DNA from: a virus
Taxonomy: Duplodnaviria; Caudoviricetes
IMG/VR virus record: IMGVR_UViG_3300037541_000451
Location: 1 to 64,000 of that record
Strand: one strand, 5' to 3'
Length of the DNA stretch: 64,000 nucleotides
Of this stretch, positions 1,252 to 48,848 are shown one piece after another. The notes beneath the pieces were generated by a model. The model was not told the origin of the DNA. It made no database searches and saw only the letters and a list, made by a program, of their open reading frames with translations. Position 1 is the stretch's first letter. The number at the start of each line of letters is the position of its first letter. Position numbers and translations under genes: made by a program.

Positions 1252-1296
1252 TTGAAATCTCCTTTGGTTGAGGTTTGACTATAAGCTTTTGCTTAT

Positions 1297-1315
1297 CATA
1301 TAAGATACCGATTTT
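1297..1315 (-). promoter_or_regulatory. candidate phage-RNAP promoter, copy 1
   Basis: AAAATCGGTATCTTATATG; related copies at 1777-1795 and 60686-60704; intergenic and upstream of an SD. Confidence 0.55.
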
Positions 1316-1322
1316 TCCGCAA

Positions 1323-3470: not shown

Positions 3471-3623
3471 GCGGGCCGAGGTGACGCCACTGGTCACCCC
3501 ATGGCCCTGGTACTACTTGCTGAGAAAAGTGTCAAGGTGGTCCAACCTGCTACCCTGCCGGGGGAACCTGCTACCCTGCCGGGGGAGCCTGCGCATGGCA
3601 ACGTGGCCGCGTCTCTCCCACCC
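3471..3623 (+). repeat. GC-rich dispersed element A, with an internal 21-bp tandem duplication
   Basis: Aligns by eye with elements at 27546-27667 and 60761-60885; AACCTGCTACCCTGCCGGGGG at 3544-3564 and 3565-3585. Confidence 0.6.
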
Positions 3624-20055: not shown

Positions 20056-21243
20056 TTAGGAATGGAATACCGGCAGGATACCTAAGGAAAGCGCCGATGT
20101 AGCCTTACGAGCCCAAGTGCCGGAAGTAGATGCCAAGGTAGCTGATGCTACAGCGGTAAGAGCCTTTAAATCAGAACCTTCTTGGACCTTCAGATAGTCA
20201 GCGTCAGCAGGGAATGCATCTTGCGAACCAGACCAGTTGTAACCGGCGGGATGCAGCACATAGCCCCAACGATACCACACTGAAGTCGTACCACCACCCT
20301 TATAAGCAGCAGCCTTGCGCTCAATTTCGACAGAATCAGGAACCATGAGAGGCTCCATTGCGAGCGAACCCGGAAGAACAATGAAAGAAGTCTTTGTACC
20401 AACAATATCAACACCAGCACCAGTATTCAGCTTTGTGAGCTCAGCTGTGCTAAAACCTTGTGAAGCTCTTGTTTGAATAAGTCTAAACTTACCCTGGAAG
20501 ATGGTATTGAAAGTCACATTACCATCAACAACAGTGGTGCTATCAACAAGATTGGCTGAACGAAGTGAAGCAACAGTTTCCGGCGAGCAGATCAGATAGG
20601 CAAACTCAGGCTCATAGTCCTTGTAGGCCATGCCAAAGGCACGAAGGAAGCCTTCAGCTCGAGCAGCGCCTTGAACTGCAGCAGTAGCGTCGATAACAGG
20701 CTTGCTTGAGCCAAGATCCACATAGAAACCGTGACGACGGCTTGTAGGATCATTCTCAAAGCTCTGACCGCCAAGACCAGTTTGACCTGAACCAGCAGCG
20801 CAACCATTTAAGGCTTCAGAGATAGCAACACCGCGAAGCACCGAAAGGATGGCATTGTGCTCGTCTTGCGCACGTGTTTCACCGAAATCACGGCCAATCT
20901 TAGCTAAACCATCGACCTGGGTAACAACTTGCTGCATGTTAACCTTTGTCGCACCATGCGTACGCACGGTCTTGACATAATTAACGTACTCAGACGAATA
21001 AGTCGTACCAGCACCATCACTTGCATCTGTGAGAGACGCAACGTTGATCGTGGGATTCAAAGGCTTGTACCAACGAACCTGACCAACGAAGGTTTCGGTA
21101 GAAGTGTCGATAAGAGGATTGCTACCAACGATACCAGTGCCCGAAAGCTTCTTGGCAGTTGTGTAAGCTTCGTCAGAATAGGCGCTAATTGCTTCTTGTA
21201 AAACAAAATTGTCGGCACCTGCGACATTAGTACGAACTGTCAT
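20056..21243 (-). CDS. major capsid protein
   Basis: 395 aa, follows the scaffold, higher GC and biased codons; HK97-type pattern (YRWGYVLHPAGYNW). Confidence 0.85.
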   Translation of the reverse strand: MTVRTNVAGADNFVLQEAISAYSDEAYTTAKKLSGTGIVGSNPLIDTSTETFVGQVRWYKPLNPTINVASLTDASDGAGTTYSSEYVNYVKTVRTHGATKVNMQQVVTQVDGLAKIGRDFGETRAQDEHNAILSVLRGVAISEALNGCAAGSGQTGLGGQSFENDPTSRRHGFYVDLGSSKPVIDATAAVQGAARAEGFLRAFGMAYKDYEPEFAYLICSPETVASLRSANLVDSTTVVDGNVTFNTIFQGKFRLIQTRASQGFSTAELTKLNTGAGVDIVGTKTSFIVLPGSLAMEPLMVPDSVEIERKAAAYKGGGTTSVWYRWGYVLHPAGYNWSGSQDAFPADADYLKVQEGSDLKALTAVASATLASTSGTWARKATSALSLGILPVFHS

Positions 21244-21253: not shown

Positions 21254-21949
21254 CTAACGTTTGGCGAGTCTTCCTTCTCTCGCCATTTTTAAAACTTCGT
21301 CCTGTGGTAAAGAAAAGATAGATTTACCTTCTAGACCACTTGACACACTTTGATTAGGCTTAGCTGGGGAGCCACCAGAACCGCTTGAAATCTTTGGCTT
21401 TAAAAGAAATGCATTTTCTTCAGCTTCTGCAAACTGACGTACAAAATCTCTTAAAGACACGCCAGACTTGTGTCTCCAGATACCTTTGTCGTCTTGTGCG
21501 AGCTGTTCTACAATTTCACGATATGCCATATTAAAAGCATTATCATTTTTGAAGGTGTAGCTAGATAACGCACCACGAAGTTCCATGTCACGAGTCAGCT
21601 CAATAACACGTTTTTCGTATGCAGCCTTCTGTGCTCTTTCCTCAGCAAGCTGCATTTCTAAAGCTTCTTTGTGTTTACCTTCTTCCTGAAGGCGCTTTAC
21701 CTCTTCTTGCTTCCGAAAAGATTCAATTTCAGCTAACTTTTTTAAAGCTTCGTCACGAGCACCGTAAGCTTTTTCAAGCTTTACCTTAATATCTTTTACA
21801 GCGTCTTTGACCTTTTCATCTACAAGCTTCTTAATCGGTTCTGCAGTTTCATCAGCATTTAAATTTAGATTAGTCTCATTTTCAACTTTGGTTTCGGCAC
21901 TGCCACCTTCGTTGTTGTTACCATCCAAATTTGAATTTTCGCCACTCAT
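21254..21949 (-). CDS. capsid scaffolding protein
   Basis: Charged coiled coil with a GSGG-rich C-terminal linker; SD AAGGA before ATG 21949. Confidence 0.75.
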   Translation of the reverse strand: MSGENSNLDGNNNEGGSAETKVENETNLNLNADETAEPIKKLVDEKVKDAVKDIKVKLEKAYGARDEALKKLAEIESFRKQEEVKRLQEEGKHKEALEMQLAEERAQKAAYEKRVIELTRDMELRGALSSYTFKNDNAFNMAYREIVEQLAQDDKGIWRHKSGVSLRDFVRQFAEAEENAFLLKPKISSGSGGSPAKPNQSVSSGLEGKSIFSLPQDEVLKMAREGRLAKR

Positions 21950-22030
21950 TTTTAAATCCTTTGAGTACAACTCATTTAGTAGAAATACAATTTCTACCTA
22001 AAAAGGTTACACCAAGACGGTGTAGCACCT

Positions 22031-22049
22031 GGGTTAATTTAACGGGTTT
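22031..22049 (-). promoter_or_regulatory. 19-bp boundary motif, copy 2 of 4
   Basis: AAACCCGTTAAATTAACCC 3 nt after the RNAP stop, followed by hairpin TACACC/GGTGTA and a T run. Confidence 0.55.
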
Positions 22050-22052
22050 GAG

Positions 22053-25000
22053 TTAGCCGACTCCATACCAGCTAAAATCATTTGAAAAACCATCTGGTAT
22101 TTTCTTTAGGATATCATCTCTATTTAAAATATCAGATTCCTTAAGTACCTTTCCACCTACACGTGACTTTCCTGGAATAGGTATTAACCCTAACTCAATT
22201 GCTTCATTTAAATATTTATCATACAGTTCTTTCGAGAGGCCTCTCGCGCGCATTTCTTCTAGAGTTAAAACAATTACATTATTTTTAAGCATTTCAGCAT
22301 ATAGCTGTCTCAAGCCTTTTCTGGCTTCAACCATGTCAGATGCATTCGCGAAGAAAGCATCGTGAATAGTAGAAGTTGGAATTTTATTTTCTTTACCCCA
22401 TAAATGAAATCTTTTTACAATCACAGCATCATTAGAATGGTTTCCGTTAACGGCATAAGCTGTTCTAGCTTTACCTATATCAGCAATATCATTAATCTTT
22501 CCAGACTTATTTATAACTTGTTGCCACCAAGTTGCTTCTGTTTTCTGAGGTATTTGTAAGATATTTGTAGTCCAGTTTCCATATTTGTCCTTGTAAATTA
22601 GTTTTTCTTCGAATGTTTGTGTGAAGTTCTGCTCAATTGTTTTGCCATCAAAGTTTACCCAAGGTACATTAGTCCAACTCTTAGGTAGCTTGTTAGCATA
22701 TAGCACTTCAAATTCTGTAATAGTCTTTAATTCTAAAAACTCTGTTTTTAAATACTTAGCACCTACTCGTCTTGTTTCGGGAGTTTCTACACCATAAATG
22801 ATTTCACTAAGAGTCCCATTAGGCTTCCAAAAACCAAACCTTTTTAATATCTTTTCACTAAGTGGCTCACCAGCTTTTAAGCCAAAAAGTTTGCTAACAC
22901 TATCAGGTAAAACATAACCTTTCTTTTTGGTGCCTAAAAGCTTAATTTTGCTTATTGTTTTCCAATCAAAATCACTATTTGATGGTTTTGCATTGGCTAA
23001 ATAATCTTGTGCTAATCTACCGAAGTATCTGGTAAAATCCTTTAAAATTGGAACTTGTTCACCAAGATACTCACTCATTATTTTTGCGATAGCTTTGAAG
23101 TCCTCTGGAGTAATTACTTTATCATAAGATTTAGTCATTTTTTCAACAAAGTCACGAGTCTTAGGATCTAAGAAATAAAGTTGTTCTAAGATGTCATCTC
23201 CGGGGTCTAAACCTTTATTAAAGATATCTTTTACATTTTGTCTTAATTGCCGTAATTCTTCTGCTGTTTCTTCGTCAAACTTTTCGTATCTTGCTATTCT
23301 AGCAGATATTTCATTTAAAACTTGATCTCTTTCTGATGCTTTTACTACAAGAACATTTTCTTGTTTGTCAAGTATTTTTGCAAGTTTACCTTCAACATTT
23401 AATGCGCCTGTTCTTTCACCAGCGCCATAGAACGTCCATTAAAGATAGGAGTAGCCTTGATCACCACGTTTAATACGTTTAGTGATAGTAGAATGATTAA
23501 TGCCAAGCATTCTACCGGCTTCACGCGTTGATTCAAATATGCCAAACGGAGTGGAAACTGCTTTTCGTAAATGATGTGCGTTTCTTCCATCTGCCTCTTT
23601 ACCTTGAATTACTTCATCTTTCCAGTAATAACCTTTATGTAATATACTCTTGCTACCAGCTTTTCTAGAAATGACTGCTTTAACAACTTTATGTGCTTTT
23701 GCCGCAGCCGCAACAGTCGGGAATTCACCTAAAGGAGTAATTACAGCTCTTGCTAGTAATGAGTTATCACCACTAACAGCTTCTTTAGCTAATTGATACA
23801 TTAATGGTGATAGTTTAACGCCATCTCTAGAGCACATTGTTGCATATGCTACTTTTAAACCTTTTACTTCTGGGAAAGCTTTCATTAATAACCAATGAGC
23901 AAGTAAGTGACATCTCGCGTTCAGATAAATTAAGTTTGATGAATCGTCACCGCCATCCATACATTTTGGAATAATATGATGACGCTCATAATAACTTTTT
24001 AATGGCTTTAGTTGGAAGCCGTGTTTTTCAATTAAAGCCAAATAATGCTTTTCGTAATCCATTTTAACTCCTAATGTATATTACTATACAGATCAGACTA
24101 TATCTTACGTCGTCACCTTTTCAGGATAGTACGTCACCGCGCTTCGGAATTAGCATAATTCCTACGAACTTCATCATCTGGTCTAGATGGTATGTTCTAG
24201 TCGTTGCACCTTCAAAGGTATCCCTACCTAAGCTTGGCTCAGGATTGCCCTTTAAGAAGGGTTTCCCTGAATTCACGGTGTTTATACATGGCAACATTCT
24301 ACCATGTTTTGAGCTTTAGCAGCTTTTCGTAAATCTTTTTCCGAAAGTCCTAATTTTTGATTCAAAAGTCTAAATCTAGGATCGTTGTAAGTTGCAGCTG
24401 CGATTTCGTCGTAAAGTCTTTTCTTTTGATTGGTTGGAATGACATTTGACAGTTCCGCCAATTGTTTATTTCTAGTTGTTAAAGCAATAATCTGAGCACC
24501 AGATGAAGAAGCATCTTGCTCGAGTGCTAATGAAATATCATAATCTTTAAGTCTAGCAAGAGAGTTTCTGCTATAAGAGCCTTCCAGGTAATTATCAATT
24601 TTGGCAGTTTCTAGAGCTAATCTTAAGAATTTATTAAGATCTTCTCCATCGATTTTTTGAAAAATCTCTGATTCTAAAATAGCTCTAATGTCATTAGGCT
24701 TACTTTTAAGCATATGATTTCCAAGTTTTATCATTTCTGGACGCCATTTTGCTGCAATTTTTTGTCTTCCAGTTAAAGTCAATGAGTTATAGTTACCTTC
24801 AAAGTAATCACTTAGTCCACCTAAAAAAGATCCAATTTGATCTTGCAAATTATAAAAACCTTCTTCACTAAATTTACGTGAAATTTCAGTATTTAAAAAT
24901 GGTCTAAAAGTTTCACCTGATTGAGGACCAATTAAACCACGATCATATATTCTAGCCCGATGGTCTATAAACGGATGGTTGCTAAAAGCTTTATTTTCGG

Positions 25001-27545
25001 CTGTAAGCCACTCCATAGCTTTAATCCGTTCATATGAGTCACCTCTAGAAGCCATATATTTACGATATTCATTTAAGTCATTATACTTCTTAGCCTGACC
25101 TTTATCGTCCTCAAAATATAAAATCTTTTTTACAAAATTAAGATAATCTTTATCAATCTTATATTTACTTTTAGCTGCCCAATTTAAAGCCTCCACAAAG
25201 TCTTTATCAATAAATTCTTCTGGAAAATCACTGAAACTAGAAGTCGATGTTATTGGTATTCTAGTGTCTTCGTAACCTAAAATACCACGATCGATAAAAT
25301 ACGTTTTATAACCTTCTCTAAACACTAATCTATTTTTGTCTTCAGTTACAGAAACACGTAATCCTAATTCAACTTTTCTTACTAATTTAGCGTATTCTTG
25401 TATTCTTGGATCTACAATTCGAATATTATAAGATAATGTATCATAATATGGCCCAAAATAAGCACCACTCATCATACTTTTCATTCTTCTTTTTTGAACA
25501 CCAAAAGTTTCAATTTCAAAGAACTTTTTAACGTTCTTAGCCTCTAAAAGACTCATCCCTAGCTCGTACCATTTACGTCTATTACCATTTATATTAGCAA
25601 GATTATATAAATCACGTCCTAAAGCAACAGCAAATTGATCGCGATCTGGGCTATCAGCAAGGCTTAGCCTGTGAGCAAACTTTAAATAAAATTGTTGTAG
25701 ATCTCTGTCAGAGACTCTGTTTCGAATTATTAAAGGAATTTTGTAATCGAAAACATTGCGTAATTCATTAGCAATTCCAGGGGCTATTTTGTCTTCCCAT
25801 CTGTTTTTCTTTAAAATATTTTCAATAAATTCGTCATGTAATTCTTGCAGTTGAGTGCTTCCCAAAACAGGATCTATGTAATTATCTTGTAAAAGCTTTT
25901 TAAGAAAATCAGAGTCTTTTCGCAGCTGTGTTTCTACGAAATCAGAAACGTTCATAACATCAAACTTGATTTGGCCTTGAACAACTGCTTTAAAGTTAGA
26001 CCAAATTTGATTATTAGATCTGTATCTGCCAAAAATGATTCTTAAGTTATCAGCAACTACGGCACGTTCGTTTATACTCATACGATCTGCTAAAGATTCA
26101 ACAATATCTTTAATAAAGGCTTTATCTCTATCTAATAGTTTTTCACTTTCATCAATGAGTCTAATATTATTTGCTAAAACAGCTGGATTTGGTTGATACA
26201 AACGCACATCTTCGTATCTACCAGTTATAGGGTTAAATTTGAGTTGGTCCTCACGAGGAGGACTAGCTAGAACTCTATTTTTTACACCTCTTTTTACATT
26301 TAATAGAGTACCTCTATAGTTGGTCAAAGACAATGTTCCATTAAGCTCACCAGATTGTAATAAATAATAATCTATTAAGCGTTTCTTTAATTCATCATTT
26401 CCAATAAAATCATCCGGTGTTGATGCACCTAGCTGTAATGCATCTAACTTTTCTTTAGCTAAAGCAAACTTTTTAGTGTCATTTGGTAAGGTGTATCCAC
26501 TATCACTTAAAGCTCTGAGCTCCTTGATTCCAACAGATGCACCGTCTGGTGCTGTAAACCTATCTACAGTAAGCTCTCCGCTACGAAGGAGTTCAACCTT
26601 TTGATAATCACCAAGATGTTTTAATTGGATCTCTTTGGATTGTCTGCTTAACCATGTATTATAAGACTCTCTTAAAGGTGTCTGACCGTCATAATATACA
26701 ATCTGTTCTTTAGTCAAGTTTTCAATATTGCGTTTGCGGACTTGAGCTGCACCTTCTAATTTAGAGATATCATTCCAGTTCTTAAAAACAGGTATTGTTG
26801 TAGATCTACAATGAAAGTGCGCAGGTGGTAAGTGTTTTCTATCATCTATCGGATAAATATTTCCATCACGATGTGCACATAAAGGAGTGGTTCTAGAATC
26901 TAAAACAGCTACATATTGCCAGCCTTGTAAAGCTTTTTCGTTAGCTTTATAGACTTCTTGATCTGTTTGTGCAGTAACGGATGTAACTGCTGTTACAACT
27001 AAAGCTCTAGACTGAGATCTGGTAATGCTGTGAATATTATTCTTACGAACATCTAAAGCAATTTCATCAATTGTTTTATTATCTGCAATACCTTTTCTAA
27101 TTACTGCTTCTAGTCTCTTTCTTTCACTTTCACCAACTCCACCCCAACCTTGTAACAAAGTTCTATCGTTAAAAAGCGGTCTTTCTAAAACAATTTCTTC
27201 AGCAACTCTTTTGGCAGGTCGTTCTGCTCTCCAAATCTTACCCATAGATGTTTCTATGGTTTGATAGGTATAAGAGAGCTGATCTGATACTAAGTCTAGT
27301 AAAGATCTTTTTGAAATGCTATAAGCTTCTCTATAAGTTTTTTGTAGTTCTTGATCAATAGCTTCACGAAGTTTTTCAAAGCCTTTTTGAGATAAACTTG
27401 CTTCTCTTATTAGCTTATCCACTCTTACTTCGTGGCCGTCAATTACAAGTGATACTTTGTTATTTAATCTTTTTTCGTACAAGCGGATCATTGCCGCTCG
27501 ATCAATGGTTCTATCATATATGTCTGTATTCGCATTGTTAGCCAT
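22053..27545 (-). CDS. MuF/gp7 head-morphogenesis domain fused to a T7-like RNA polymerase; exons 27545-24301 and 23436-22053, 1542 aa after splicing
   Basis: MuF: WQYVAVLDSRTTPLC...PPAHFHCRST. RNAP: DHRARIY, motif A QDASSSGAQII, motif B RKAAKAQNMV|TFYG across the intron, motif C HSND...IHDAF. Confidence 0.9.
23437..24300 (-). mobile_element. group I intron (864 nt) in RNAP motif B
   Basis: 5' exon ends in U and pairs with the IGS (ACAUGGU/GCCAUGU); P10 AGAAUGUU/GACGUUCU; core strings AATTCAGGGAAAC, GGCAATCCTGAGCCAAG, GTGCAACGACTA, AAGATATAGTCT; terminal G; removal restores the frame. Confidence 0.9.
23439..24062 (-). CDS. intron-encoded HNH homing endonuclease
   Basis: ERHHIIPKCMDGGDDSSNL...H...H; two C-terminal NUMOD1-like repeats (TPLGEFPTV, TPFGIFEST). 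Confidence 0.88.
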   Translation of the reverse strand: MDYEKHYLALIEKHGFQLKPLKSYYERHHIIPKCMDGGDDSSNLIYLNARCHLLAHWLLMKAFPEVKGLKVAYATMCSRDGVKLSPLMYQLAKEAVSGDNSLLARAVITPLGEFPTVAAAAKAHKVVKAVISRKAGSKSILHKGYYWKDEVIQGKEADGRNAHHLRKAVSTPFGIFESTREAGRMLGINHSTITKRIKRGDQGYSYL

Positions 27546-27667
27546 CCATTGCTCCGTACGTGCGCGGAAAGGTACCGGCTAGGTACTAGGTTGGACCAGA
27601 GTGTCACGATTTTCGTGAGGGTATACCCCAGGGTATATCTTGACCCTCGCGTGGCACCTGCGCCCGC
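27546..27667 (-). repeat. GC-rich dispersed element B
   Basis: Fills the whole spacer upstream of the RNAP gene; shares its 5' end and TGGTCCAACCT with element A. Confidence 0.6.
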
Positions 27668-27834: not shown

Positions 27835-28524
27835 TTAATCGCCCCACATGCGTTTACGAATTTTTTCAGCCGTTTGTTTAACATCTGAACCACTTTGATT
27901 AATTAGATTTTTACTATAAGATCTAATATCGCTGACTTTTTCATAGTCTCTAGCTTGCTTAACAATTGCATCTTCGTTAGCCTTAGCTTTTGTTGCAACA
28001 TTAATCTTATTAGCGATAGAATCTTGTTTAATTGTTTTTTCGTAAATTCTAGAATCGATTTCTCTTCGCAAAGCACTGTTGGTACGCTCAGCTTCATTAA
28101 TTTTTCTTTTACTGTTTTTGTTAAGAATTGCATCAGCAGCCAAAAAAGTCATTGCTGCACCAATTGCAGCAGGAGGCGATATTACTGACATGGGCGCTGT
28201 CATAATTACCCCATCTTTTACATAAGATTTTAATTCCTTATCTTTATAATTTGAAATTAAATCCTCATTTACAATATTTTTGATTTTTACTCTATTCAAT
28301 TGATTAAGCTCATCACGAGTTTTATTAAGCTCTTTAGAATCAGATTCAATGTTTCGGTTATAAAGCGTAGAAAACGCCTTTGAAAAAGCAGCTTTCTGAT
28401 TCAATTTTTGCTGTTTTTCTCTAGTTGCGAAATAACCACCAATACTATAACGGTATCCAGGCGAAGAACCATCTTTTGTGTATTGGTTTACACCTTCTGG
28501 ATTATTTGTTTTTCCGGTTGCCAT
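27835..28524 (-). CDS. hypothetical protein with [11 protein letters not shown] leader
   Basis: ORF track; SD AAGGAG. Confidence 0.75.
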
Positions 28525-28576
28525 TATTACTCCTTAATTTGGTTATAATCTAGTAAGCGTAAATTAAACAATTTAT

Positions 28577-29143
28577 TTAAGTTTGCTTAAACTGCCTTTG
28601 ATGGCCTGTCGCTTTTCTAACAGCTTCTTCCTCTCTGTCAATCTTGTAACCTAAATATCCACCAGTAACGGCACCGCCCACAGTATTTATGCCTATTTTG
28701 AGTGCAGGATTCATCTTAGCAACCATCTGAGCAGATTTGAATACAAGAGCTCCAATGCCGGCTCCCATCGCAGCTGTTGGAATACCTAAAGATGCAGCAC
28801 CTATTGCTTTTCCCTTAGGAGTAGAACCAATTGATGCGCCTGATGTACCGCCCGCAATTGCACCTGCAGCTCCATAGAGTTTTGCTGCATTCGAAGTATT
28901 TTTTACCTTATCTAGAAAAATTCGAGTAGTAGCATTGCCTATAACACCGCTTGCCGCGCCTATAGCTGCTCCGGCCGCAGCATATTTAACGGTTTTATCG
29001 ACTGCTTCCCAATTTTCTTTAGTTCTTTCTTTTGCACTTGCAAATGCGCCTCCAACTCTTGTTTTAGCAGCTTCGAATGTAGATTTAGGCTTGCCAGTGT
29101 ATTGATTTATACCTTCTGGGTTGTTAGTTTTACCAGTTGCCAT
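28577..29143 (-). CDS. Gly/Ala-rich membrane-like protein with [11 protein letters not shown] leader
   Basis: ORF track; glycine-zipper-like GAAIGAASG repeats. Confidence 0.75.
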   Translation of the reverse strand: MATGKTNNPEGINQYTGKPKSTFEAAKTRVGGAFASAKERTKENWEAVDKTVKYAAAGAAIGAASGVIGNATTRIFLDKVKNTSNAAKLYGAAGAIAGGTSGASIGSTPKGKAIGAASLGIPTAAMGAGIGALVFKSAQMVAKMNPALKIGINTVGGAVTGGYLGYKIDREEEAVRKATGHQRQFKQT

Positions 29144-29152
29144 TATTACTCC

Positions 29153-30733
29153 TTAAGCTACTCCATCACCATTTGCAATACCTTCAAGAACCCGATTTGG
29201 TGCTTGAGCCTTCATTACAGCTTCCATATCAGCTGTTATCTCCTGTTTACCAGCTTCATCGTCATAATCGGGCGGCATTAAGTCATTTTGTTTGAGTAAC
29301 ATAATCCAAATAGATCTAGGAATTAAGCCTTGTTGATACCATTCTGTGGCAAGTCTCAACCAATCAGCACCAAGAGGTACTGGATTAAAATCATCAGATA
29401 AACTAAACTTCACATCTGATGCTTTAATACCAATCGAATAACGCCAGCTTATCATAAACGCAATCACTTGAGACATTATAGAGCTAATCTTGCTATTTAA
29501 TGTACCAAGTCTGGCTGTTTGAGCAGCGTTTCTAATTTCTAATGCAATGCCTGATTGAGATGTTTCAGGGCTCAGCATTCTAATGCCAAGCTTTGCCATT
29601 TCTTCAATGCCGCTGGCAATAGCTTTTTCCATGTCAGATAGAGCATCTGTAGGAGTCTCTAGTACTTTTGCATCATCGCCTTGTCTAAGGCGTAACCAAG
29701 TGCCTAAACCGCTATTGACTAACTTATCAAAGTCATCATCAGACATGTCTGAAATGATGACCGGAGTATATGTTGAAGCACCATAAAGTAAATGATTTCT
29801 TCGGCTTATTTTATTATACAAGCTTAATTCTTTATCAATAATTTGAGAAAGCATTGGTTCTACTGGATCAATAGAACCATTAAGAGGCCATGCTGGAATA
29901 AATCTTAGACGTTCGCCTTCTAAAAGAATATTAGTCTTTGTCTCAACAAGATCAAAAATATCTTTATGTTCAGAAGGCCTTAAAACTTGTTGCCCTGCAA
30001 CGACAGGCAGTTGAGTCGTATCAGCCTTCTTTTGAAAAATACGTATTTGATAGTAGCCATCTTTATCTAATTCATGAACCCATACTGTATCACGGTAAGT
30101 AGGATGAAATTCATATTGAGAATAGTCTTCTTTAAAACCACGAATAATTACCCTGTTAAGTATTGATTTACCGTATTCATTTTCACTAATTCTCCAATTT
30201 ATAATTGATTCTGCTTTTTGTAGTATAGGGTAAGGTTTGTAATTTAGTTTATCATCTGCACTTAGATTATTTTCATCAGGAATATTAGGATAATCAACAA
30301 AGATCCATGCTCTGCTTGTTTGAACTTCTTCCCACAATGCTAAGTCAAGAAAAGCTGTCAAAGATGAGTCATCTTTTCCAAACTCATTCATGATCCAATT
30401 ATAAGCGTCTGCAGGAACTGATGCGGGTAATTCGAGTAAGGGCTTCTTTCTAAGAAGCCCACCTACAATCATTTTAGCAAATTCAGAGGTTATCCCAGGA
30501 AGTTCTGCTTCTGCCTTATAGAACTCATACTGTTCCTGGGACATTTTGGGAGAGAATGGTATTAAGAAATTAGTAAAAGAAAGTCTATCAAGATAGTTAT
30601 CATATGCTTTTACATACCGTTCACCGCTACAAACCGCTCTGCTCCTGTTCCAGAGCGGTTTTAAGGACTCAAAAGAGGCATTTGGATCCGCTACGGTTTT
30701 TACAGGAGCTTGTGCTGCATTTATAATGGCCAC
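29153..30733 (-). CDS. portal protein
   Basis: 526 aa, DUF4055-like C-terminal half (PAWPLNG...LYNKISRRNHLLY); upstream of the MuF gene. Confidence 0.85.
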   Translation of the reverse strand: MAIINAAQAPVKTVADPNASFESLKPLWNRSRAVCSGERYVKAYDNYLDRLSFTNFLIPFSPKMSQEQYEFYKAEAELPGITSEFAKMIVGGLLRKKPLLELPASVPADAYNWIMNEFGKDDSSLTAFLDLALWEEVQTSRAWIFVDYPNIPDENNLSADDKLNYKPYPILQKAESIINWRISENEYGKSILNRVIIRGFKEDYSQYEFHPTYRDTVWVHELDKDGYYQIRIFQKKADTTQLPVVAGQQVLRPSEHKDIFDLVETKTNILLEGERLRFIPAWPLNGSIDPVEPMLSQIIDKELSLYNKISRRNHLLYGASTYTPVIISDMSDDDFDKLVNSGLGTWLRLRQGDDAKVLETPTDALSDMEKAIASGIEEMAKLGIRMLSPETSQSGIALEIRNAAQTARLGTLNSKISSIMSQVIAFMISWRYSIGIKASDVKFSLSDDFNPVPLGADWLRLATEWYQQGLIPRSIWIMLLKQNDLMPPDYDDEAGKQEITADMEAVMKAQAPNRVLEGIANGDGVA

Positions 30734-31753: not shown

Positions 31754-34700
31754 TTAATTGTAAAACATTAAAAAATTTCCAAAAGATGTGATAACTGATA
31801 CAGGTGGAGTTTTAAATGTCCACCCTAAAGTGCCATTATTAGTTGAATTAGTGCCTGCATACCACTTATCTGTTGGAGGATATGCACGGATCCCAGTAAT
31901 TGTTAAGAAATCTGAAGACACCGGACCTAAACCAGTAAGGATTAGTGTTGCTGGTGATGTTGCTGAGGTACCTGTGATTGTTAAAGCCCGGCTAGAATCA
32001 ATACCCGTGGCAGTAAACGTACCGACTTTTTGTGTTGTATTCCCCAGTGAAAGGGCTTTGAGTCCACTTAAATTGCTACTGATCCTAGTGAATGTATTGT
32101 TACCAGTTAGATATATTACACCTCCACCACCGCCATTATTAAGACCACCACCCTCAATAATTAATTCATTGAATATATTATTACCGGTTACTACAATGGG
32201 TCCTGTGTTACCAAATTTGAGATTAATATTAGAATAATCTAGATTATTTCCAGCGAAAGTATTTGTTGTAAATGCAAAACTTGCTGTGCTAAGTTGAATG
32301 GTTCCACCATTTCCAATTACTGATACATTTGAACCTGTTATATTCCAACGTGTCCCACCAATTTGCGTAAATATTGAAAAGGTTCCTGATCCGATATTAA
32401 TAGTTCTTGCAACGTCTCCTGTGGAAGTGAAATTTCCACTGGTGAATGAAACGTTGTAACCATTACAATTCAAAGTCCCTGCAGTTAGTGTAATACCGGA
32501 AGATCCGACAGTACCTATAGAAAGGGCATCCTGCAATACAACTGATCCGCCAGGAGAATTAATAATAACACCAAACGTGCTAAAGGGAACGCCTGAAGTT
32601 CGAATGCTTTGCGTTGTTCTGCCAGCAAAAGTTACGTTTATACTTGAACTTGTATAAGATATTCTAGAACTTGTAATCCAATCGCCATGTATTGTGAATT
32701 GTGGAGCAATAGTCAAACTGCTATTTGTTCGTGCAGAAGCGTCAAAAGTTCCAATGTTATACGAAGTTCCTGAAGCTATTACCGCTTCACCTCCTGAATT
32801 ATTATCAATAATTGCTGTATCTTGGGCAAGAGGAAAATTAACAAGATTTGCTGTTCCACCGCTCATAGTGGCCCAATAATTTCCATTCCAAGACACAAAA
32901 TCGCTCGGTCCAACCCAATATACTGTCTTTGGTGCGGTAAATGTAATTCCAGAGTTGCCTTTGCAGTTCCCAATGCGCGTACCAGATGCAGGCGCAGCAG
33001 CACCAGCAATGGTGATGTCGCAGAAGTCAACGTCGGTCATTGATACAGCAGCGGCTGTAATGGTACGGGTGGTGCCGATGGTGTCGCTGCGGCAAAAATG
33101 CCGCATAGTAGCGTCAGTTCCTGCGGAGAAAGTGAGCGTACCTGTGACAGTTTGGTTGGCGGCAAGGACTATGTTCTTAAAGACAGCAGAGGTGATGCCG
33201 GTGAAGGACAGATTGTTAAAGCTGTTGGTTCCGTTAAGAGTTACAGTGCCTGTAGAGGTGCTTGTGAAGGCAACGTTGTAAAAGGTTTGATTGTTGCCGA
33301 AGAAAGTGGGGCTTGCGTTAGAGCAATTGATTTGAGCCGTGCCTGAAGCAAAAGTCAAATTTGCTCTAGAAATTTCACTTGTCCCAAAACTAAAAGCTGT
33401 TGCAAGTGACAACGTAATAGTCCCGGATCCGAAATTAACGTTCCTTGGATTTTCATTATCAGAACTAAAAGATCCAGCAGTGAGATTATATGTGTTGCAA
33501 TTAAATGTCCCATTTGCGACGCTAACTGCGGCTGCGCTGTTATTCAATGCACTACCAAGTGTCCACTCACATCCTACTCCGTTGATTCCAAGTGATGATG
33601 ATAAGGCAACACCATTCGTCGTTAGCGTCAACCCAGACGTAGATCCCGACAAAGTAATAGCGCCTGTGTACGTCCTTGTCAGCCCCGTCGCAGGCAGCGT
33701 CACGTTGCCGTAAATGCCGTCAATAGCAGTGCTGCCTGCCAATGTCACGTTGCCGCTCGCTGGTCCTGCAATGGTCAACGACTTCATCCTAATGCCACCA
33801 GTGACAGCATTCACCGTGGCTGTGTAGGCTGTGGTGTTGGACAAACTGTCAAAGACAACATCATCATGGCTGCGAGGTACAGAAGCGCCAGAAGCGCCAC
33901 CAGACACAGTAGACCAACGAGCGGTGTCGCTCCAGTTGCCTGTGCCGCCAACCCAGTAGCGTGTGCTGTCGGCTGGCTTGGCTGTGCGGTAGACAGGCGC
34001 TGCCGCCGTGCCTGTGCTGTTGGCACCGGCATAGAACTCACCTAGGCTAGTGGCAGCGAATCCAATCGAGCCCATAGCAAGGTAGTCAATGCCGCTGGTA
34101 CATGCTCCTGCGAGAACATGGCTGGTGCCTGTGCCAGTAAGAGTGACCACATTACCCACCGTCCCTGTGACAGTCCACTTGCCAAAAGTCTGGTTTGTAG
34201 TGCCTAACGCAATGGTATGCGCTACGGTCTTGGTGCTGGCGAGTTCGGTAAATTGATTGTTAGTGATGATTGTTGTTGTACTGGTGCCTGTAGTACCGCC
34301 GATGGTAAGTTTGTTGTAAGACTTAAATCCACCAATAAAAGTTCTTGAATCCGTAGTATTAGCTGATAAGAGTATATTTGCTGTACCTTTAATAAGTGTA
34401 AGACTCGTATTAACGTTCCATACGTTATTACCTTGCGCTGCTGTAAGTGTCCATAACCCCGTCCCCATTTTTAAGGTTCTTGTCGCAGAAAAAGAACTAA
34501 TGAAGACTCTTGTCGTGACATTGAATGTTACAGCATCAAAAGTCCCCGATTCTAGTGCCAATTCTGTGTTACCACCATTCAGTGTTATTGCATCAGCAAG
34601 TAACACTGTACCATTGATGCTATCAATGTATACATTGCAACTAAAAGCATTACCATTGCTAGTGATTGTCTGGCTGCCGCGCTTGGAAAACGTTATTTTG

Positions 34701-36985
34701 CTTGTCGTACTTGAGCTAATGTTTCCATGTTTCCAATCACCATGTATACGAGGTAAAACACCTCCAGTTACATTCAACGTCATCGCGCTGGTTCGCGCAG
34801 AAGCATCAAATGCGCCTATATTCCACGCCCGTTCTATTGTTACCGTCCCTGCACCACCCGTGTTGTCAAACACCGCCGTGTCCTGAGCCAGCGGGAAGTT
34901 GTTGATGTTAGGCGTGCCGCCAGAAGAAGGCGCCCATGCCGTAGCAGACCAGTTCTGCGTGCCGGCAAGATTCCAATAAACAGTCTTTGCCGCAGGAAAC
35001 GTGATGCCGCTGTTACCGCCACAGTTGCCTGCACGGGCAAGAGAAGACCCGGCAGCAGCCCCTGTGATGGCAATGTCTCTGAAGTCGCAGTCTGTGGCAC
35101 TGAGCGTGCCTACGCTGAGCGTGCGGGTGGTGCCAAGGGTGTTAGAGCAAACGAAGATGCGACGGACGGGAGAGGCTCCGGCAACGGTGAGGGTGCCGGT
35201 AATGGTTTGGTTTGCGCTAAGGGGCAACACAGTCAGACCCGCAGAAGAAGGCGCAGTTACTGACAGATTGTTGAATATATTTGACCCTGTTATAGTTATA
35301 GAGTTGACGAAAGCACTGGTAAATGAAAGATTGTAAAAAGTTTGATTAGCAAGATTGAGTTGTGGGGCATCAGCAGACGAAACAATTGTTGATGTGCCTG
35401 CATCAAATGTTAAATTTGTGCTGTCTAATGAAATTGTAGGATTTGGAAAATTACCAAGTGTCAATGTCACCGTACTCGAACCAAGCTTAATAGTTCTAAC
35501 GTTAGAATTATTAGACACCAGCCCCGCAGCCGTAACGTTGAAGTTCTTGGTATCGAAGGTGCCGTTGTTAATAAAAAGGCGAAAATTAGGAGGGGTAAAT
35601 ATCGAGAGCGCATCCGCAAGTTGAACAGTCCCTCCAAGGGTATCAATCACGATATTCCAAAACGTCTTTCCTGCGCTGGTGATGGTCTGAGTATTCCGTC
35701 CAGAGAACGTCAGCTCGGACGATCCGGACAGTGCCGTACCGGAGCCGTTCTTCCAATCTCCGTAGATTGTGAATCCGTTAATAGTCAGGTTCATGGCAGT
35801 AGTCCGACTGGACATATCCACTGTACCTGTATAAGGCACAGCAGAGTTCATCACTACTTGGCTAACCTCTCCTGCGTTAGTGAACGTGGCTGTGTCTTGT
35901 GCCAGCGGGAAAAAGTCGGTGCTGGGCGTGCCTGTGCTAGTATCAGACCAGCCATTGGCACTCCAGTTATTAGACCCGGCAAGATTCCAATACACCGTCT
36001 TGGGCGTGCTGAAGGTGATGCCTCTGCAGCCTCTCAAGTCGCCAACACGCGTGCCGCTGATGGGCGCGGCTGTGCCAATAACGTAGATGTCTCGGAAGTC
36101 TGCGTCGGTCAGGCTTGGGGCGCTGTTGATGGTGAGGGTTTGGGCTAGTCCGTAAGTTACACCACGGAACCAGACTCGGCGGTTACCTGCTGTGCCGGTG
36201 GTGGAGAGGGTGCCGTTGATGGTCTGGCGGGAGTCGAAGGTTATTTGACGGACTCCGGCAGAAGAAGGAGCGGTAATAGACAAATTATTGTAAGTAGCTA
36301 ATCCACCTATTGAGTGAGTATTTGCGCCGGTTGATGTATACGAAACATTATAGAATGTTTGATTGCCACAAGAATTAAAGGCACTCGCGGCAGTAAATAT
36401 AATTTGCGATGTTCCTGCATTAAATGTTAAATTAGTAGCGTTTGCAAAATCAATATTTAATGACAGTGTTACTGTGCTGCTGCCCAGATTTATTGTTCTA
36501 AGATTAACATTACTAGATTGAAAAGAAGCGGCCGTAACATTAAAATTTGCCGTAGTAAATGTTCCTTGAGTGACGGTTATCGCGCCTGAAGATGTCAAAG
36601 CATCACCAAGCGTCACAGTGATACCAGCCCCGTTGATCGTCAACGGTCCGATAGTTTTCCCTGCCGTGGTCAGCGTAGCCGTTGCATTCAACGTCAGCGT
36701 GCCGCTGTACGTCACCGTCATCCCCGCCACAAGCGTGATACTACCAGACACGGTAATGGCTGAGCTACCCGCCAACGTTCCCGTAAATCCTGTGCAGTTG
36801 ATGGACTTGGCACCAGTGTTGCCGGTAGAGATGGTGCAGGTGCCGGTGGACAGGTTCGTAAAGAACACATCATCAGCACTAGTAGGGACGCTTGCTCCTC
36901 CAGCGCCACCAGACGCAGTAGCCCACTTCGTCCCAGCAGTACCGTCCCAGTTTGCTGTGCCACCGACCCAATATCTATCTGCCAT
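31754..36985 (-). CDS. large repetitive beta-solenoid fibre/adhesin protein
   Basis: 1743 aa, G/T/S/A/N-rich; repeats RYWVGGTxNW (x2), FPLAQDTA (x3), DFxDI...KTVYW (x3). Confidence 0.75.
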   Translation of the reverse strand: MADRYWVGGTANWDGTAGTKWATASGGAGGASVPTSADDVFFTNLSTGTCTISTGNTGAKSINCTGFTGTLAGSSAITVSGSITLVAGMTVTYSGTLTLNATATLTTAGKTIGPLTINGAGITVTLGDALTSSGAITVTQGTFTTANFNVTAASFQSSNVNLRTINLGSSTVTLSLNIDFANATNLTFNAGTSQIIFTAASAFNSCGNQTFYNVSYTSTGANTHSIGGLATYNNLSITAPSSAGVRQITFDSRQTINGTLSTTGTAGNRRVWFRGVTYGLAQTLTINSAPSLTDADFRDIYVIGTAAPISGTRVGDLRGCRGITFSTPKTVYWNLAGSNNWSANGWSDTSTGTPSTDFFPLAQDTATFTNAGEVSQVVMNSAVPYTGTVDMSSRTTAMNLTINGFTIYGDWKNGSGTALSGSSELTFSGRNTQTITSAGKTFWNIVIDTLGGTVQLADALSIFTPPNFRLFINNGTFDTKNFNVTAAGLVSNNSNVRTIKLGSSTVTLTLGNFPNPTISLDSTNLTFDAGTSTIVSSADAPQLNLANQTFYNLSFTSAFVNSITITGSNIFNNLSVTAPSSAGLTVLPLSANQTITGTLTVAGASPVRRIFVCSNTLGTTRTLSVGTLSATDCDFRDIAITGAAAGSSLARAGNCGGNSGITFPAAKTVYWNLAGTQNWSATAWAPSSGGTPNINNFPLAQDTAVFDNTGGAGTVTIERAWNIGAFDASARTSAMTLNVTGGVLPRIHGDWKHGNISSSTTSKITFSKRGSQTITSNGNAFSCNVYIDSINGTVLLADAITLNGGNTELALESGTFDAVTFNVTTRVFISSFSATRTLKMGTGLWTLTAAQGNNVWNVNTSLTLIKGTANILLSANTTDSRTFIGGFKSYNKLTIGGTTGTSTTTIITNNQFTELASTKTVAHTIALGTTNQTFGKWTVTGTVGNVVTLTGTGTSHVLAGACTSGIDYLAMGSIGFAATSLGEFYAGANSTGTAAAPVYRTAKPADSTRYWVGGTGNWSDTARWSTVSGGASGASVPRSHDDVVFDSLSNTTAYTATVNAVTGGIRMKSLTIAGPASGNVTLAGSTAIDGIYGNVTLPATGLTRTYTGAITLSGSTSGLTLTTNGVALSSSLGINGVGCEWTLGSALNNSAAAVSVANGTFNCNTYNLTAGSFSSDNENPRNVNFGSGTITLSLATAFSFGTSEISRANLTFASGTAQINCSNASPTFFGNNQTFYNVAFTSTSTGTVTLNGTNSFNNLSFTGITSAVFKNIVLAANQTVTGTLTFSAGTDATMRHFCRSDTIGTTRTITAAAVSMTDVDFCDITIAGAAAPASGTRIGNCKGNSGITFTAPKTVYWVGPSDFVSWNGNYWATMSGGTANLVNFPLAQDTAIIDNNSGGEAVIASGTSYNIGTFDASARTNSSLTIAPQFTIHGDWITSSRISYTSSSINVTFAGRTTQSIRTSGVPFSTFGVIINSPGGSVVLQDALSIGTVGSSGITLTAGTLNCNGYNVSFTSGNFTSTGDVARTINIGSGTFSIFTQIGGTRWNITGSNVSVIGNGGTIQLSTASFAFTTNTFAGNNLDYSNINLKFGNTGPIVVTGNNIFNELIIEGGGLNNGGGGGVIYLTGNNTFTRISSNLSGLKALSLGNTTQKVGTFTATGIDSSRALTITGTSATSPATLILTGLGPVSSDFLTITGIRAYPPTDKWYAGTNSTNNGTLGWTFKTPPVSVITSFGNFLMFYN

Positions 36986-41138: not shown

Positions 41139-41942
41139 TCAAACCGTGGGCGGGGTTGACTTAAAGGGGTGATCGGCGGGCAGGTTGGCCTCAAGGCCCC
41201 ACTTCCACGCTAGGTAGCCTTCGAGTTTCTGGCGGTCAGCGGTCTGAGTACTGGTAGTGGTGACAACCAATTCGCTGAGATCAAACGCGCCACTGTTACT
41301 AGGTTCGCCTACTCGATATGGGCCAATCTCTGTTGTAGATGCCGTGTTTGTTGGTGCTACCGCCCCAGTATTAGAATTTACAACGGCGCCATTCATGGAA
41401 ATCGTGTGAATGTTATTGTCGGACTGCCCCGCCACTATTGACCAATTTGCTCCACTACCAGACGATAAAGCCGCGGGAGCTGACCCATAAGTATATTCGT
41501 AAGCGCGACTATCGTTTATATTAATAGCAACAGCCTGATCAGTGCCAGCAAGTTTGCTAGTAATGATGCCTCCGTACCCACCGCTATTTTCTTTCGCTAC
41601 CGCAATTATTATGCGGTTCGTGGAATCCAAGAACCTACTAGCGATTGACATAAGATCATTCACGCCATCAAATGTCAGTGCCGGCTTTCCTCCAAGGAGT
41701 GTGGCGTTATAAGCCGGCTGGTTGGCCGCGGTCGCTTGCGTAGCATTCCGAGAATTCCCAGACTTATCGTTCCACTGACTAACCGTGCTGCCGTTAAGAA
41801 TGATGCTCGCGGTATCTTCAGCATCCAACCACAGCGCCAGCGTCGAACCGAGTTGATCCGGACGCCACAAGCGCGGACCACCAAAGGGGCGACCGTCCCA
41901 CCGATAGGGATGCGTGTAAGGAAGGTTGCGTAAAAGACTCAT
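41139..41942 (-). CDS. LamG/concanavalin-like lectin-fold protein, 1 module
   Basis: LWLDAEDT...VSQWNDKSGN...QPAY; RQKLEGYLAWKWG. Confidence 0.7.
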   Translation of the reverse strand: MSLLRNLPYTHPYRWDGRPFGGPRLWRPDQLGSTLALWLDAEDTASIILNGSTVSQWNDKSGNSRNATQATAANQPAYNATLLGGKPALTFDGVNDLMSIASRFLDSTNRIIIAVAKENSGGYGGIITSKLAGTDQAVAININDSRAYEYTYGSAPAALSSGSGANWSIVAGQSDNNIHTISMNGAVVNSNTGAVAPTNTASTTEIGPYRVGEPSNSGAFDLSELVVTTTSTQTADRQKLEGYLAWKWGLEANLPADHPFKSTPPTV

Positions 41943-43510: not shown

Positions 43511-43514
43511 AATA

Positions 43515-46110: not shown

Positions 46111-47457
46111 TTAGAACATAAAGCCTCTAGAGACACGCTTTGAACCTTGATTCACAGGGAACAAGTACTCAATACCATATCTAAGACCATCCGAGAAGTG
46201 TTCTATGCTTTCTGACTTGTCAATCGCAGCAACATCAGGGTTTTTGTCAGCCCAAATAGTCCTTTCTAAAGATGTGATAACACCTTTACAACGAGGGTGG
46301 ATGTACATGTCAACCACGCCTGCTGCATTAAGAAGTTTTCTATTAACAGCGTTTACAGAATCAATTATAGGAGGTGCTTTCGGATGTGAGAGACACGTTA
46401 TGCCGTGAGATTCTAATATGCTAAAATCTGTTCTACCCACTGGTGCAGATGTTTTCCTAGCCTTTCCTGAAGGATCAGGATAAGCATAGATCTTATGACC
46501 TTTATACTTTTGAGATATGACTTTTGCTAAAGTCTCAGTATCAGGATGTCCTTTAAACTCATCTAATACATGGATTTGTTTACCACGGATTGCCATTGCT
46601 GAGGAACACTGAAGACCTACGTTAAAGTCTATATTAACATGAACGTCTTCACCTTTTTCATCATCCCTAGGCGGTTCGAAGTAAGGTAAGTCGTTCTTAA
46701 CATGGAGATCTCTACTAAAGCAATAAAAGACTGTGTTACCAGACTCCTTAAAGCTTGCCAGATACTCCGAAGCAAATGTTATAGGATCTAATCTTTGCTT
46801 AAGCTTTTCAATTTCTTCAGGGTCTAAGAATGGAGAACTCTTATAATCAAAGTGATAAGACTTCCAATCATTATCTGAAGATTGATTTGTATACAACTCA
46901 TGAAAGTAGTTGTAGCCTTTGGGTGTGCTAATTATTAAAGCACGACCTGGTGATCTTGCTTTAAAGAACGCTGCACGTTGTTTAGACCATCTAGTGATGA
47001 TGGCTGGCTGAATAACACCTTCCCAAGCTTCCTTTGGTGCAATTCCTTTATGGCACGATGAAACTTCGTCCCACACTACAAGATAGGCGCCTTTACCACG
47101 AATTCTTTCAACTGATTCGTAAGATAAAAGCCTTAGCTCTACCTTGTTAGGAAAAACAAATCTGCCAAGATCACGTGAAGACTTAATGGCAAAATGCTCC
47201 AAGCCAATATCGTAATTGAGAAGAGGGTAATAAATATCAGTGACTTGATCATGTGTAGGTGCAATTATATAAACAACCTTATTGGGAACTGATTCGGGTA
47301 GTTCCATCAATTCAAACACAGCACTAGCTCCAGCAGTAGCGGCAGTAAAAGACTTACCCCAGCCACGAGAGCAGCACACTACACTGAATCTGCAAGCTTT
47401 GTCTACAAAAAGATCTCTGAATACCTTAGATTGACCTTCATGAAGATTTATTGGCAT
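46111..47457 (-). CDS. terL: terminase large subunit
   Basis: Walker A SRGWGKS, Walker B LVVWDE, nuclease IDFN, YPDPSG, HFSDGLRY. Confidence 0.93.
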   Translation of the reverse strand: MPINLHEGQSKVFRDLFVDKACRFSVVCCSRGWGKSFTAATAGASAVFELMELPESVPNKVVYIIAPTHDQVTDIYYPLLNYDIGLEHFAIKSSRDLGRFVFPNKVELRLLSYESVERIRGKGAYLVVWDEVSSCHKGIAPKEAWEGVIQPAIITRWSKQRAAFFKARSPGRALIISTPKGYNYFHELYTNQSSDNDWKSYHFDYKSSPFLDPEEIEKLKQRLDPITFASEYLASFKESGNTVFYCFSRDLHVKNDLPYFEPPRDDEKGEDVHVNIDFNVGLQCSSAMAIRGKQIHVLDEFKGHPDTETLAKVISQKYKGHKIYAYPDPSGKARKTSAPVGRTDFSILESHGITCLSHPKAPPIIDSVNAVNRKLLNAAGVVDMYIHPRCKGVITSLERTIWADKNPDVAAIDKSESIEHFSDGLRYGIEYLFPVNQGSKRVSRGFMF

Positions 47458-48806: not shown

Positions 48807-48848
48807 CTTTCAGATTATTTTCCTGTTACCCTAACAGGGTACATCTTT

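Follow-up and report, generated by a model that had tools for sequence, protein, structure and literature searches.

A stretch of 64,000 nt from a tailed phage genome (Caudoviricetes; IMG/VR record IMGVR_UViG_3300037541_000451, positions 1 to 64,000), referred to here as the window, carries a gene whose predicted product joins an N-terminal MuF-type minor head domain to a C-terminal RNA polymerase (RNAP) of the T7 type. The fusion gene (27545..22053, minus strand) consists of two exons, 27545..24301 and 23436..22053. The raw open reading frames (ORFs) of the region are an ORF of 1087 amino acids (aa) at 27545..24282, an ORF of 207 aa at 24062..23439, and an open frame from 23438 to 22053. The 3' end of exon 1 reads ...AAC ATG GT. 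The spliced coding sequence of 4629 nt encodes 1542 aa plus the stop codon, with a product mass of 177 kDa. The start codon and the splice sites are as predicted, and the spliced junction reads ...RKAAKAQNM-V-TFYGAG.... The spliced product was aligned with four intron-less metagenomic homologues of 1542 aa (P0010, P0014, P0021, and P0022), and the alignment has zero gaps from end to end at 75-78% identity. The preliminary description of this DNA had given the coordinates, strand, and length of the gene and a product of 1542 aa after splicing. All of these agree with our reading of the sequence, and the splice sites, start codon, and length are taken to be correct because of the gap-free alignment with uninterrupted homologues. 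The features of the locus are listed in Table 1.

Table 1. Features of the fusion gene and of its surroundings in the window.
Feature	Position	Strand	Description
MuF / SPP1 gp7-type minor head domain, aa 1-347	26505..27545	-	Matches to Pfam PF04233, PHROG 241, and BFVD folds
Helical linker, aa 348-564	25854..26504	-	Modelled confidently as helices; matches no known fold; outside the T7 RNAP-aligned part
Polymerase part 1, aa 565-1081 + 2 nt	24301..25853	-	N-terminal domain, T/DxxGR, motif A, first half of motif B; T7 profile and VIA match
Group I intron, 864 nt	24300..23437	-	Predicted inside polymerase motif B; Rfam RF00028; splice sites read from sequence
HNH + NUMOD1 homing endonuclease, 207 aa, intron-encoded	23439..24062	-	Pfam HNH E 1.7e-5, NUMOD1 E 1.3e-5
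Exon 2, rest of polymerase, codon 1082 third base to aa 1542 + stop	22053..23436	-	Motif B YG, NGNHSNDA, motif C; PF00940, PHROG 414
Portal, 526 aa	29153..30733	-	Upstream of fusion; Pfam DUF4055; PHROG 145 'portal' E 6.1e-57
Scaffold	21254..21970	-	Directly downstream of fusion gene; PHROG 206 'scaffolding' E 4e-6
Major head protein	20056..21243	-	After scaffold; PHROG 247 'major head' E 8e-17
P-A motif, 20 nt, AAACCCGTTAAATTAACCCA (coding strand)	22030..22049	-	3 nt past fusion stop; hairpin follows; candidate promoter
P-B motif, 27 nt, TTGCGGAAAAAnCGGTATCTTATATGA (coding strand)	1296..1322	-	Candidate second promoter class

The N-terminal part of the product was assigned to the MuF proteins by profile, by hallmark motifs, and by gene position. 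Pfam PF04233 (Phage_Mu_F) matches aa 145-251 with 53 bits (cut-off 29.6, E 7e-14), and PHROG 241 'head morphogenesis' matches aa 1-347 (E 2.9e-64). The MuF identity given in the preliminary description is thus retained, and its extent, which had been placed in the first ~280 aa, is revised to aa 347. The hallmark motifs (D-x-R-T...C and P-P-x-H-x-x-C-R) are found as LDSRTT (aa 215-220) and PPAHFHCRST (aa 240-249). The residues D216, T219, C223, P240, P241, H243, C246, and R247 are invariant across the family of fusion proteins. The AlphaFold2 model of aa 1-570 has a predicted local distance difference test (pLDDT) score of 86, with a dip at aa 349-356. Foldseek reported no match of this model in the PDB at E <= 0.001, and the fold of aa 348-564 is left without assignment for that reason. 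In BFVD, the model matches the homologue from phage DSS3_VP1 (E 1e-33), followed by dozens of minor capsid or head morphogenesis proteins that include a MuF-ADP-ribosyltransferase fusion of Xanthomonas phage Xp12. When the six frames of the rebuilt 86-kb genome were searched with the family MuF profile, the fusion was the sole copy found, although this family-specific profile could miss a very divergent MuF domain. Since just one MuF domain was found, the fusion protein is, on the profile evidence, the only candidate for the MuF head role in this genome.

The C-terminal part was recognised as a polymerase by family profiles and by fold search. Pfam PF00940 scores 24.4 bits on exon 2 (cut-off 22) and 49.4 bits on an uninterrupted homologue, and PHROG 414 'RNA polymerase' matches both exons (exon 2 with E 1e-7). 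Single-sequence phmmer searches of each exon against the PDB returned no polymerase match; in that database, the polymerase came to light only through the fold search and the family profile. When 33 diverse members of the family were combined into a profile, it matched T7 RNAP (E 8.5e-24), mitochondrial RNAPs (1e-17 to 4e-19), and the small subunits of N4 RNAPII (1e-6 and 1e-4). Judged from these profiles, the polymerase part is a remote homologue of known RNAPs; the homology is called remote because the single-sequence PDB searches fail and the RNA_pol score of exon 2 is just above the threshold.

The structure of the polymerase was modelled with AlphaFold2 on aa 343-1542 of the intron-less homologue P0010, whose numbering is identical to that of the window protein. 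The model has a pLDDT of 81.5 and a predicted template modelling score of 0.76. Foldseek matches it to T7 RNAP (E 3e-18), and VIA-align superimposes it on T7 RNAP with Z 31.9 and a root-mean-square deviation of 3.4 A over 522 residues, where model residues 222-1200 lie on T7 residues 33-883. Yeast and human mitochondrial RNAPs match with Z 24-28, and the N4 mini-vRNAP matches with Z 16.5-19. Because the match spans T7 residues 33-883, the model places the entire T7-type enzyme, N-terminal domain included, at aa ~565-1542.

The preliminary description had listed every T7-type catalytic motif (DxxxR-IY, A, B, and C), and all of them were located in the spliced product. The T/DxxGR motif is IDHRARIY (aa 860-867), motif A is EQDASSSGAQ (aa 1009-1018), motif B is RKAAKAQNM/VTFYG (aa 1073-1086, split by the intron), the HS(N/Q)D segment is NGNHSNDA (aa 1412-1419), and motif C is TIHDAFF (aa 1438-1444). 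The catalytic residues D1011, D1441, K1077, Y1085-G1086, and R865 are present. In family alignments that reach ~20% identity, the motif A Asp (D1011), the motif B Lys (K1077), and R865 are invariant, and at least 90% of members keep the motif B Tyr-Gly and the motif C Asp. The profile match, the right-hand fold with a T7-type N-terminal domain, and the catalytic residues are the features by which this part was classified as a T7-like RNAP. The polymerase part is complete and, judged from its motifs, apparently active. The model also contains an insertion of ~100 residues with low confidence (aa 1234-1333).

The fusion gene is interrupted by a predicted self-splicing group I intron. Rfam RF00028 gives a complete match at 24350..24074 with 75.8 bits (gathering score 50, E 1.8e-17). 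The 5' splice site lies directly after ...AACAUGGU, and P1 is formed by the pairing of CAUGGU, at whose end the junction lies, with ...GCCAUG, which places a U.G pair at the 5' splice junction. The terminal G of the intron is at 23437, 2 bases past the stop codon of the intron ORF, and this stop codon stands 2 nt before the 3' splice site. The covariance score above gathering, the U.G pair, the terminal G, and the frame that is intact after removal are all those of a group I intron. Reads from four runs that contain the locus in part gave only fragmentary contigs; one weak joint in them has one side at 24301, the predicted final base of exon 1, and the other at 23238, and with just 27 letters on its short side it is not counted as evidence. 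Among the 120 best homologues of the fusion protein, 27 end at aa 1078-1091, which is the motif B intron site, and 3 end at aa 1413 in the HSNDA motif. Introns at motif B and at the HSNDA motif point to homing that has repeatedly targeted the most conserved catalytic segments of the polymerase. Homing introns typically sit in indispensable conserved sites.

These observations bear on the alternative that the polymerase part is a degenerate and inactive relic which serves only as bulk or as a DNA-binding domain. The failure of single-sequence PDB searches to find an RNAP, the marginal Pfam score of exon 2 (24.4 against 22), and the low-confidence insertion are what such a relic might leave. A relic would hardly keep the catalytic Asp, Lys, Tyr-Gly, and Arg invariant or nearly so at ~20% identity, the full T7 fold was recovered in the model, and homing introns target the catalytic motifs. 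We consider a relic extremely improbable.

The fusion proteins were found to be widespread. A word-indexed search returned 433 relatives of the fusion protein, and an exhaustive search of 1.84 billion representatives returned 166 clusters at 50% identity. Because the exhaustive search did not reach ordinary T7 RNAPs, the fusion proteins are considered, by sequence, a self-contained family. The combination of MuF with RNA_pol that the preliminary description had pointed out was recovered across this family, where 30 of the 33 diverse members have MuF and 29 have RNA_pol; the three members without MuF are one cut row and two fragments. The sources name these proteins just 'SPP1 gp7 family putative phage head morphogenesis protein'. 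The polymerase part is found in only four of 50,697 deposited phage records, namely EBPR siphovirus 1 and three of the roseophages DSS3_VP1 / DSS3_PM1 (Naomviridae). EBPR siphovirus 1 (gp47 'head protein', gp48, and gp49) has 60-65% identity and the same intron with its HNH gene. The roseophage protein ('minor head protein-like protein', QGH74596.1) has 29-34% identity and is uninterrupted. QGH74596.1 and gp47 + gp49 are true homologues at the same position of the head module; their GenBank labels are head or hypothetical only, and the polymerase part is unrecognised in those records. By these sequence matches, the MuF-RNAP design is common to the cultured Naomviridae and to hundreds of phages that are uncultured.

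The phage of the window and DSS3_VP1 have ~22 genes in common, both of their polymerases included (the second is described below). DSS3_VP1 has DNA that contains deoxyuridine (dU-DNA). When all DSS3_VP1 ORFs were compared with this genome by tblastn, no match was found for Dcd (dCTP deaminase) or Dtm (dTMP phosphatase), and there is no sign of dU-DNA in this phage for that reason. Megablast of the locus against the same 50,697 phage records gave no match. The source DNA occurs in lake-water metagenomes (all DNA runs).

Every gene of the window is on the minus strand. The order begins with the terminase (46111..47457) and continues with several structural genes, the portal, three small ORFs, the fusion, the scaffold, the major head protein, and tail genes. 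Beyond the tail genes are a tape measure of 1978 aa, a tail tip protein, and a cell-wall hydrolase, and this is a siphovirus-type tail module. The position between portal and scaffold given in the preliminary description agrees with the PHROG assignments, although the portal gene is not directly adjacent and is separated from the fusion gene by the three small ORFs (188, 229, and 59 aa). The order of terminase, portal, fusion, scaffold of ~230 aa, capsid of ~400 aa, and tail is kept in relatives at 78% identity (loci L001 and L002), 32% identity (DSS3_VP1 and L011), and 24% identity (L010).

Two of the small ORFs in the gap between portal and fusion (27835-28524 and 28577-29143, minus strand) have near-identical first 60 nt, ribosome-binding site included (28478-28537 against 29097-29156, 88%), and neither has a Pfam or PHROG match. 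The relative L001 has just two tiny ORFs (42 and 50 aa) in this gap. An element of ~120-150 nt that is rich in guanine and cytosine (GC) lies directly 5' of the fusion start codon (27546-27667), and others lie at 60761-60885 (minus) and 3471-3623 (plus) in this genome of 35% GC. The three copies have 64% mean column identity, and the copy at 27546-27667 folds no better than shuffled sequence (z -0.94).

The 86-kb genome was rebuilt from flanking loci. The genome assembly is circular, because the contig ends meet within a near-identical contig. A second T7-like RNAP is encoded in the same genome outside the window (L008:220-3187), ~15 kb beyond window position 64000 and just upstream of the genes for DNA polymerase, exonuclease, primase-helicase, ribonucleotide reductase, and ligase. 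This free-standing RNAP is split into 529 + 202 aa by an HNH_3 gene, matches T7 RNAP directly (E 6e-25), and has ~21% identity to the fused polymerase. Its homologue in DSS3_VP1 is annotated as 'RNA polymerase' (732 aa, 35% identity), and that phage likewise has the pair of fusion and free RNAP. The second RNAP was absent from the first 50 kb of the EBPR siphovirus 1 record, which is partial. The interruption of the second RNAP is exactly in motif B (...KRNVMTI / ... / GGTAYG). Rfam reported nothing on this interruption, and the 5' part of the insert aligns to the catalytic core of the fusion intron (shared P3-P9 blocks). Homing may thus have brought related introns to one and the same motif in two polymerases with only 21% identity.

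Several known systems resemble the fusion protein. In portal-terminase phages, MuF proteins belong to the minor components of the head, and the domains fused to their C-termini are regarded as cargo delivered to the host (PMC5512222). The MuF-fused effectors (polymorphic toxins, ADP-ribosyltransferases, and RNases) share with the fusion protein the N-terminal domain, the position after the portal, and the idea of a C-terminal cargo (PMC5512222). In contrast, the fusion protein carries a 980-aa polymerase where those effectors carry small toxins or modifying enzymes, no immunity gene is present, and the family occurs in lytic-looking phages with their own replication genes instead of temperate phages. 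Membership in the MuF polymorphic toxins was rejected on the grounds that the C-terminus is an RNAP and the next gene is a scaffold gene, not an immunity gene.

Phage N4 packages and ejects an RNAP of the T7 superfamily (PMC13434306). N4 gp50 (Schitoviridae) is made late, carried in the capsid, and ejected, and it performs the earliest transcription before a second phage-encoded T7-like RNAP follows (PMC13434306, PMC5512222); the packaging of the fusion protein is proposed by analogy. The N4 mini-vRNAP also shares the polymerase fold with the fusion protein (Z 19). N4 gp50 differs in that it is a podovirus protein of ~3500 aa with a central polymerase between ejection and encapsidation regions, whereas the fusion protein has 1542 aa, a MuF anchor, and a polymerase that runs up to the C-terminus, and belongs to a phage with a long tape measure. 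In structure, too, the fused polymerase stands nearer to the RNAPs of T7 and mitochondria (Z 24-32) than to that of N4. Membership in the N4 gp50 family was rejected on size, domain layout, the siphovirus tail module, and the Z scores (16.5-19 for N4 against 31.9 for T7). N4-like virion RNAPs have been stated to occur in N4-like phages only (PMC5512222).

The virion RNAP of phage P23-45 is fused to the tape measure and transcribes the pre-early genes, which include the gene of the second RNAP (PMC10770324). P23-45 gp96 is alike in that a siphovirus has a virion RNAP fused to a structural protein and a second, non-virion RNAP, and the same logic is proposed here. The P23-45 polymerases are of the two-barrel type (double-psi beta-barrel, DPBB) and their carrier is a tape measure in the tail, whereas the fusion protein has the T7-type 'right hand' fold and a head-protein carrier near the portal. 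The fused polymerase shares with T7 RNAP and mitochondrial RNAPs the catalytic motifs and the fold over T7 residues 33-883, and differs from them in its low identity (13-18%), its extra insertion of ~100 aa, and its N-terminal extension of 564 aa. T7 RNAP itself (Autographiviridae) is a free early protein that is made by the host RNAP and is not a virion component.

We propose that the fusion protein is probably a capsid-packaged and ejected RNAP that starts transcription without the host enzyme, with the free T7-like RNAP acting later; this reading is held with somewhat more confidence than doubt and is drawn by analogy. The N-terminal MuF domain would be the module for capsid incorporation, and the C-terminal two thirds would be a catalytically competent, T7-type single-subunit RNAP. 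The gene would be expressed late with the head genes, after splicing of the group I intron, and the MuF domain would bring a few copies into the procapsid, at the portal or close to it. In the next infection, these copies would exit together with the DNA and would carry out the first transcription of phage genes, for which no host RNA polymerase would be needed. The second RNAP, encoded beside the replication genes, would then take over later transcription. The preliminary description had likewise regarded MuF as a packaging and ejection tag. The architecture and the context fit that view, namely the sole MuF domain, the conserved position in the head module, the conserved catalytic residues, and the second RNAP; packaging and ejection themselves are still inferred.

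The location of the gene within the late structural operon would also suit a fusion protein that is never ejected and that acts in the producing cell, either as a late polymerase tethered to the assembling heads or as a precursor that is cleaved to free a late RNAP while MuF stays in the capsid. The linker (aa 348-564) could hold a processing site, where the pLDDT dip at aa 349-356 falls, and the free RNAP could do the early work if its gene were transcribed by the host RNAP. We regard this explanation as unlikely. The Pfam and PHROG searches identified no prohead protease in the block of portal, MuF, scaffold, and capsid genes, and the fusion is retained family-wide instead of being split. 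The low identity between the two polymerases suggests distinct roles, and RNAPs that are made late and carried by a structural protein follow the pattern of N4 gp50 and P23-45 gp96 (PMC13434306, PMC10770324).

Two candidate promoter motifs, P-A and P-B, were identified. Each has five copies in the whole genome, and all copies are intergenic and on the coding strand. The other copies of P-A (AAACCCGTTAnATTAACCC) are at 3143-3162, 48848-48867, and 60730-60749, and the fifth lies beyond the window, before the DNA polymerase module. P-A is thus found ahead of the DNA polymerase module, the scaffold and capsid genes, a block at 60.7 kb, and the regions at ~3.1 kb and upstream of the terminase. The copy after the fusion gene is 100% conserved at the same spot in L001 and L002, where the hairpin that follows differs in sequence. 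As a candidate promoter read by a phage RNAP, this copy would serve the scaffold and capsid genes. The other copies of P-B are at 1776-1802 and 60685-60711, with two outside the window in the small-ORF region. P-B copies are concentrated in the run of small ORFs that extends from the lysis gene to the second RNAP; a further copy is at 60.7 kb, where the P-A and P-B copies are 50 nt apart. Most copies of both motifs are followed by a hairpin whose sequence varies between copies and between relatives. The two polymerases and the two motif classes are compatible with a transcription relay, in which either enzyme could be assigned to either motif.

Perfect GC-rich hairpins followed by T runs on the coding strand were observed at 113-126, 49119-49149, and 59824-59856 (minus), and at a contig junction (L008:38-72). 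The T runs have 14, 31, 33, and 29-35 T, which is several times the usual length of a U-tract, and one of these sites caused an assembly break. Judged from their sequence, these sites are likely intrinsic terminators.

The P-A copy just ahead of the DNA polymerase module and the fold close to mitochondrial RNAPs (Z 24-28) would agree with a delivered polymerase whose main products are not mRNAs but replication primers or transcripts at an origin, which T7 RNAP and mitochondrial RNAP are able to make. The genome encodes its own primase-helicase, and the copies of the motifs lie ahead of several operons, those of capsid and terminase among them, and not at a single origin; a priming role as the main task is therefore judged very improbable.

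It is also conceivable, along the lines of the genome entry suggested in the preliminary description, that the fusion protein is packaged and ejected and that its main job is mechanical, where it holds the DNA end at the portal and pulls the genome in by transcribing, with gene expression being secondary. T7 RNAP drives genome entry by transcription, SPP1 gp7 associates with the DNA end and the portal, and the genes of this phage are all on one strand, as such a role would favour. Against this, the circular assembly has no defined leading end, the strong terminators break up the single-strand gene array, and the same observations would fit ordinary early transcription. The analysis gave no support to the 'leading DNA end' and the transcription-driven entry of the preliminary description, and a mainly mechanical role is considered quite unlikely.

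Several points weigh against the proposal of an ejected RNAP that starts transcription. The second RNAP gene is cut off from the small-ORF region by a hairpin with a T29-35 terminator. A simple relay is not supported in detail, because this terminator precedes the second RNAP gene and neither motif family does. No clear promoter was found for that gene, and a scan for sigma-70 promoters that covered the second RNAP region and the DNA upstream of it gave 14 sites against 17.5 expected, which is no enrichment. The circular assembly offers no defined first-entering end here either, and the MuF search carries the caveat of a divergent copy given above. The 177-kDa protein would have to unfold to traverse the portal and the tail, as is argued by analogy with N4. 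The Naomviridae description (PMC8323127) and the study of dU-DNA enzymology (PMC12697855) mention neither RNA polymerase nor MuF and never mention the fusion protein, and the support for the proposal consists of sequence and models.

Other regions of the window were also noted. Genes of ~50% GC are found at 31754-36985 and 41139-44408 (minus). The first region is a 1743-aa ORF without Pfam or PHROG match. The second region has three ORFs (267, 523, and 297 aa) with internal direct repeats of 77 nt, and the 523-aa ORF matches PHROG 'virion structural protein'. The genes at 62795-63796 and 60928-61419 (minus) lie beside a DNA ligase gene and a tRNA cluster, and the precomputed Pfam labels on a matching contig are Gad2-like and Tad3-like, which suggests that their products are anti-defence proteins.

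To our knowledge, virion-carried RNAPs are known from few phage groups, namely N4-like podoviruses, crAss-like phages, jumbo phages, and P23-45-like Thermus phages. The preliminary description had left it unconfirmed whether the MuF-RNAP fusion was undescribed. A full-text literature search for MuF or minor head proteins with virion or single-subunit RNAPs, with most subscription journals outside its scope, found no description of the fusion, and a survey of virion-delivered multidomain proteins lists none (PMC5512222). The homologous genes are nevertheless present in GenBank, where their labels name head proteins only. Both virion RNAPs and MuF-cargo fusions are already known, and a T7-type enzyme on MuF in a siphovirus is a new combination.

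The broader reading, for which we see about even chances, is that MuF is a general handle for capsid delivery and that a large, global clade of siphoviruses (lake, marine, wastewater, and soil, including the dU-DNA Naomviridae) injects a T7-type RNAP. Together with the free RNAP, this would give host-independent transcription from the first minute, and N4 gp50 and P23-45 would be joined by a third way, evolved independently, of placing an RNAP in the virion. The fused enzyme, a short, self-contained, and highly diverged T7-family polymerase that would have its own promoter, would be of practical interest as an orthogonal transcription tool. By an inferred link, the fusion could explain how transcription starts on the uracil-containing DNA of DSS3_VP1 and DSS3_PM1. 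These two phages and their host are in culture, and this idea is therefore directly testable. If the proposal is true, MuF would be able to carry a 110-kDa enzyme and not merely small toxins, which bears on how proteins are loaded into and expelled from capsids, and ordinary-looking siphoviruses would possess a compact and widespread virion-RNAP solution.

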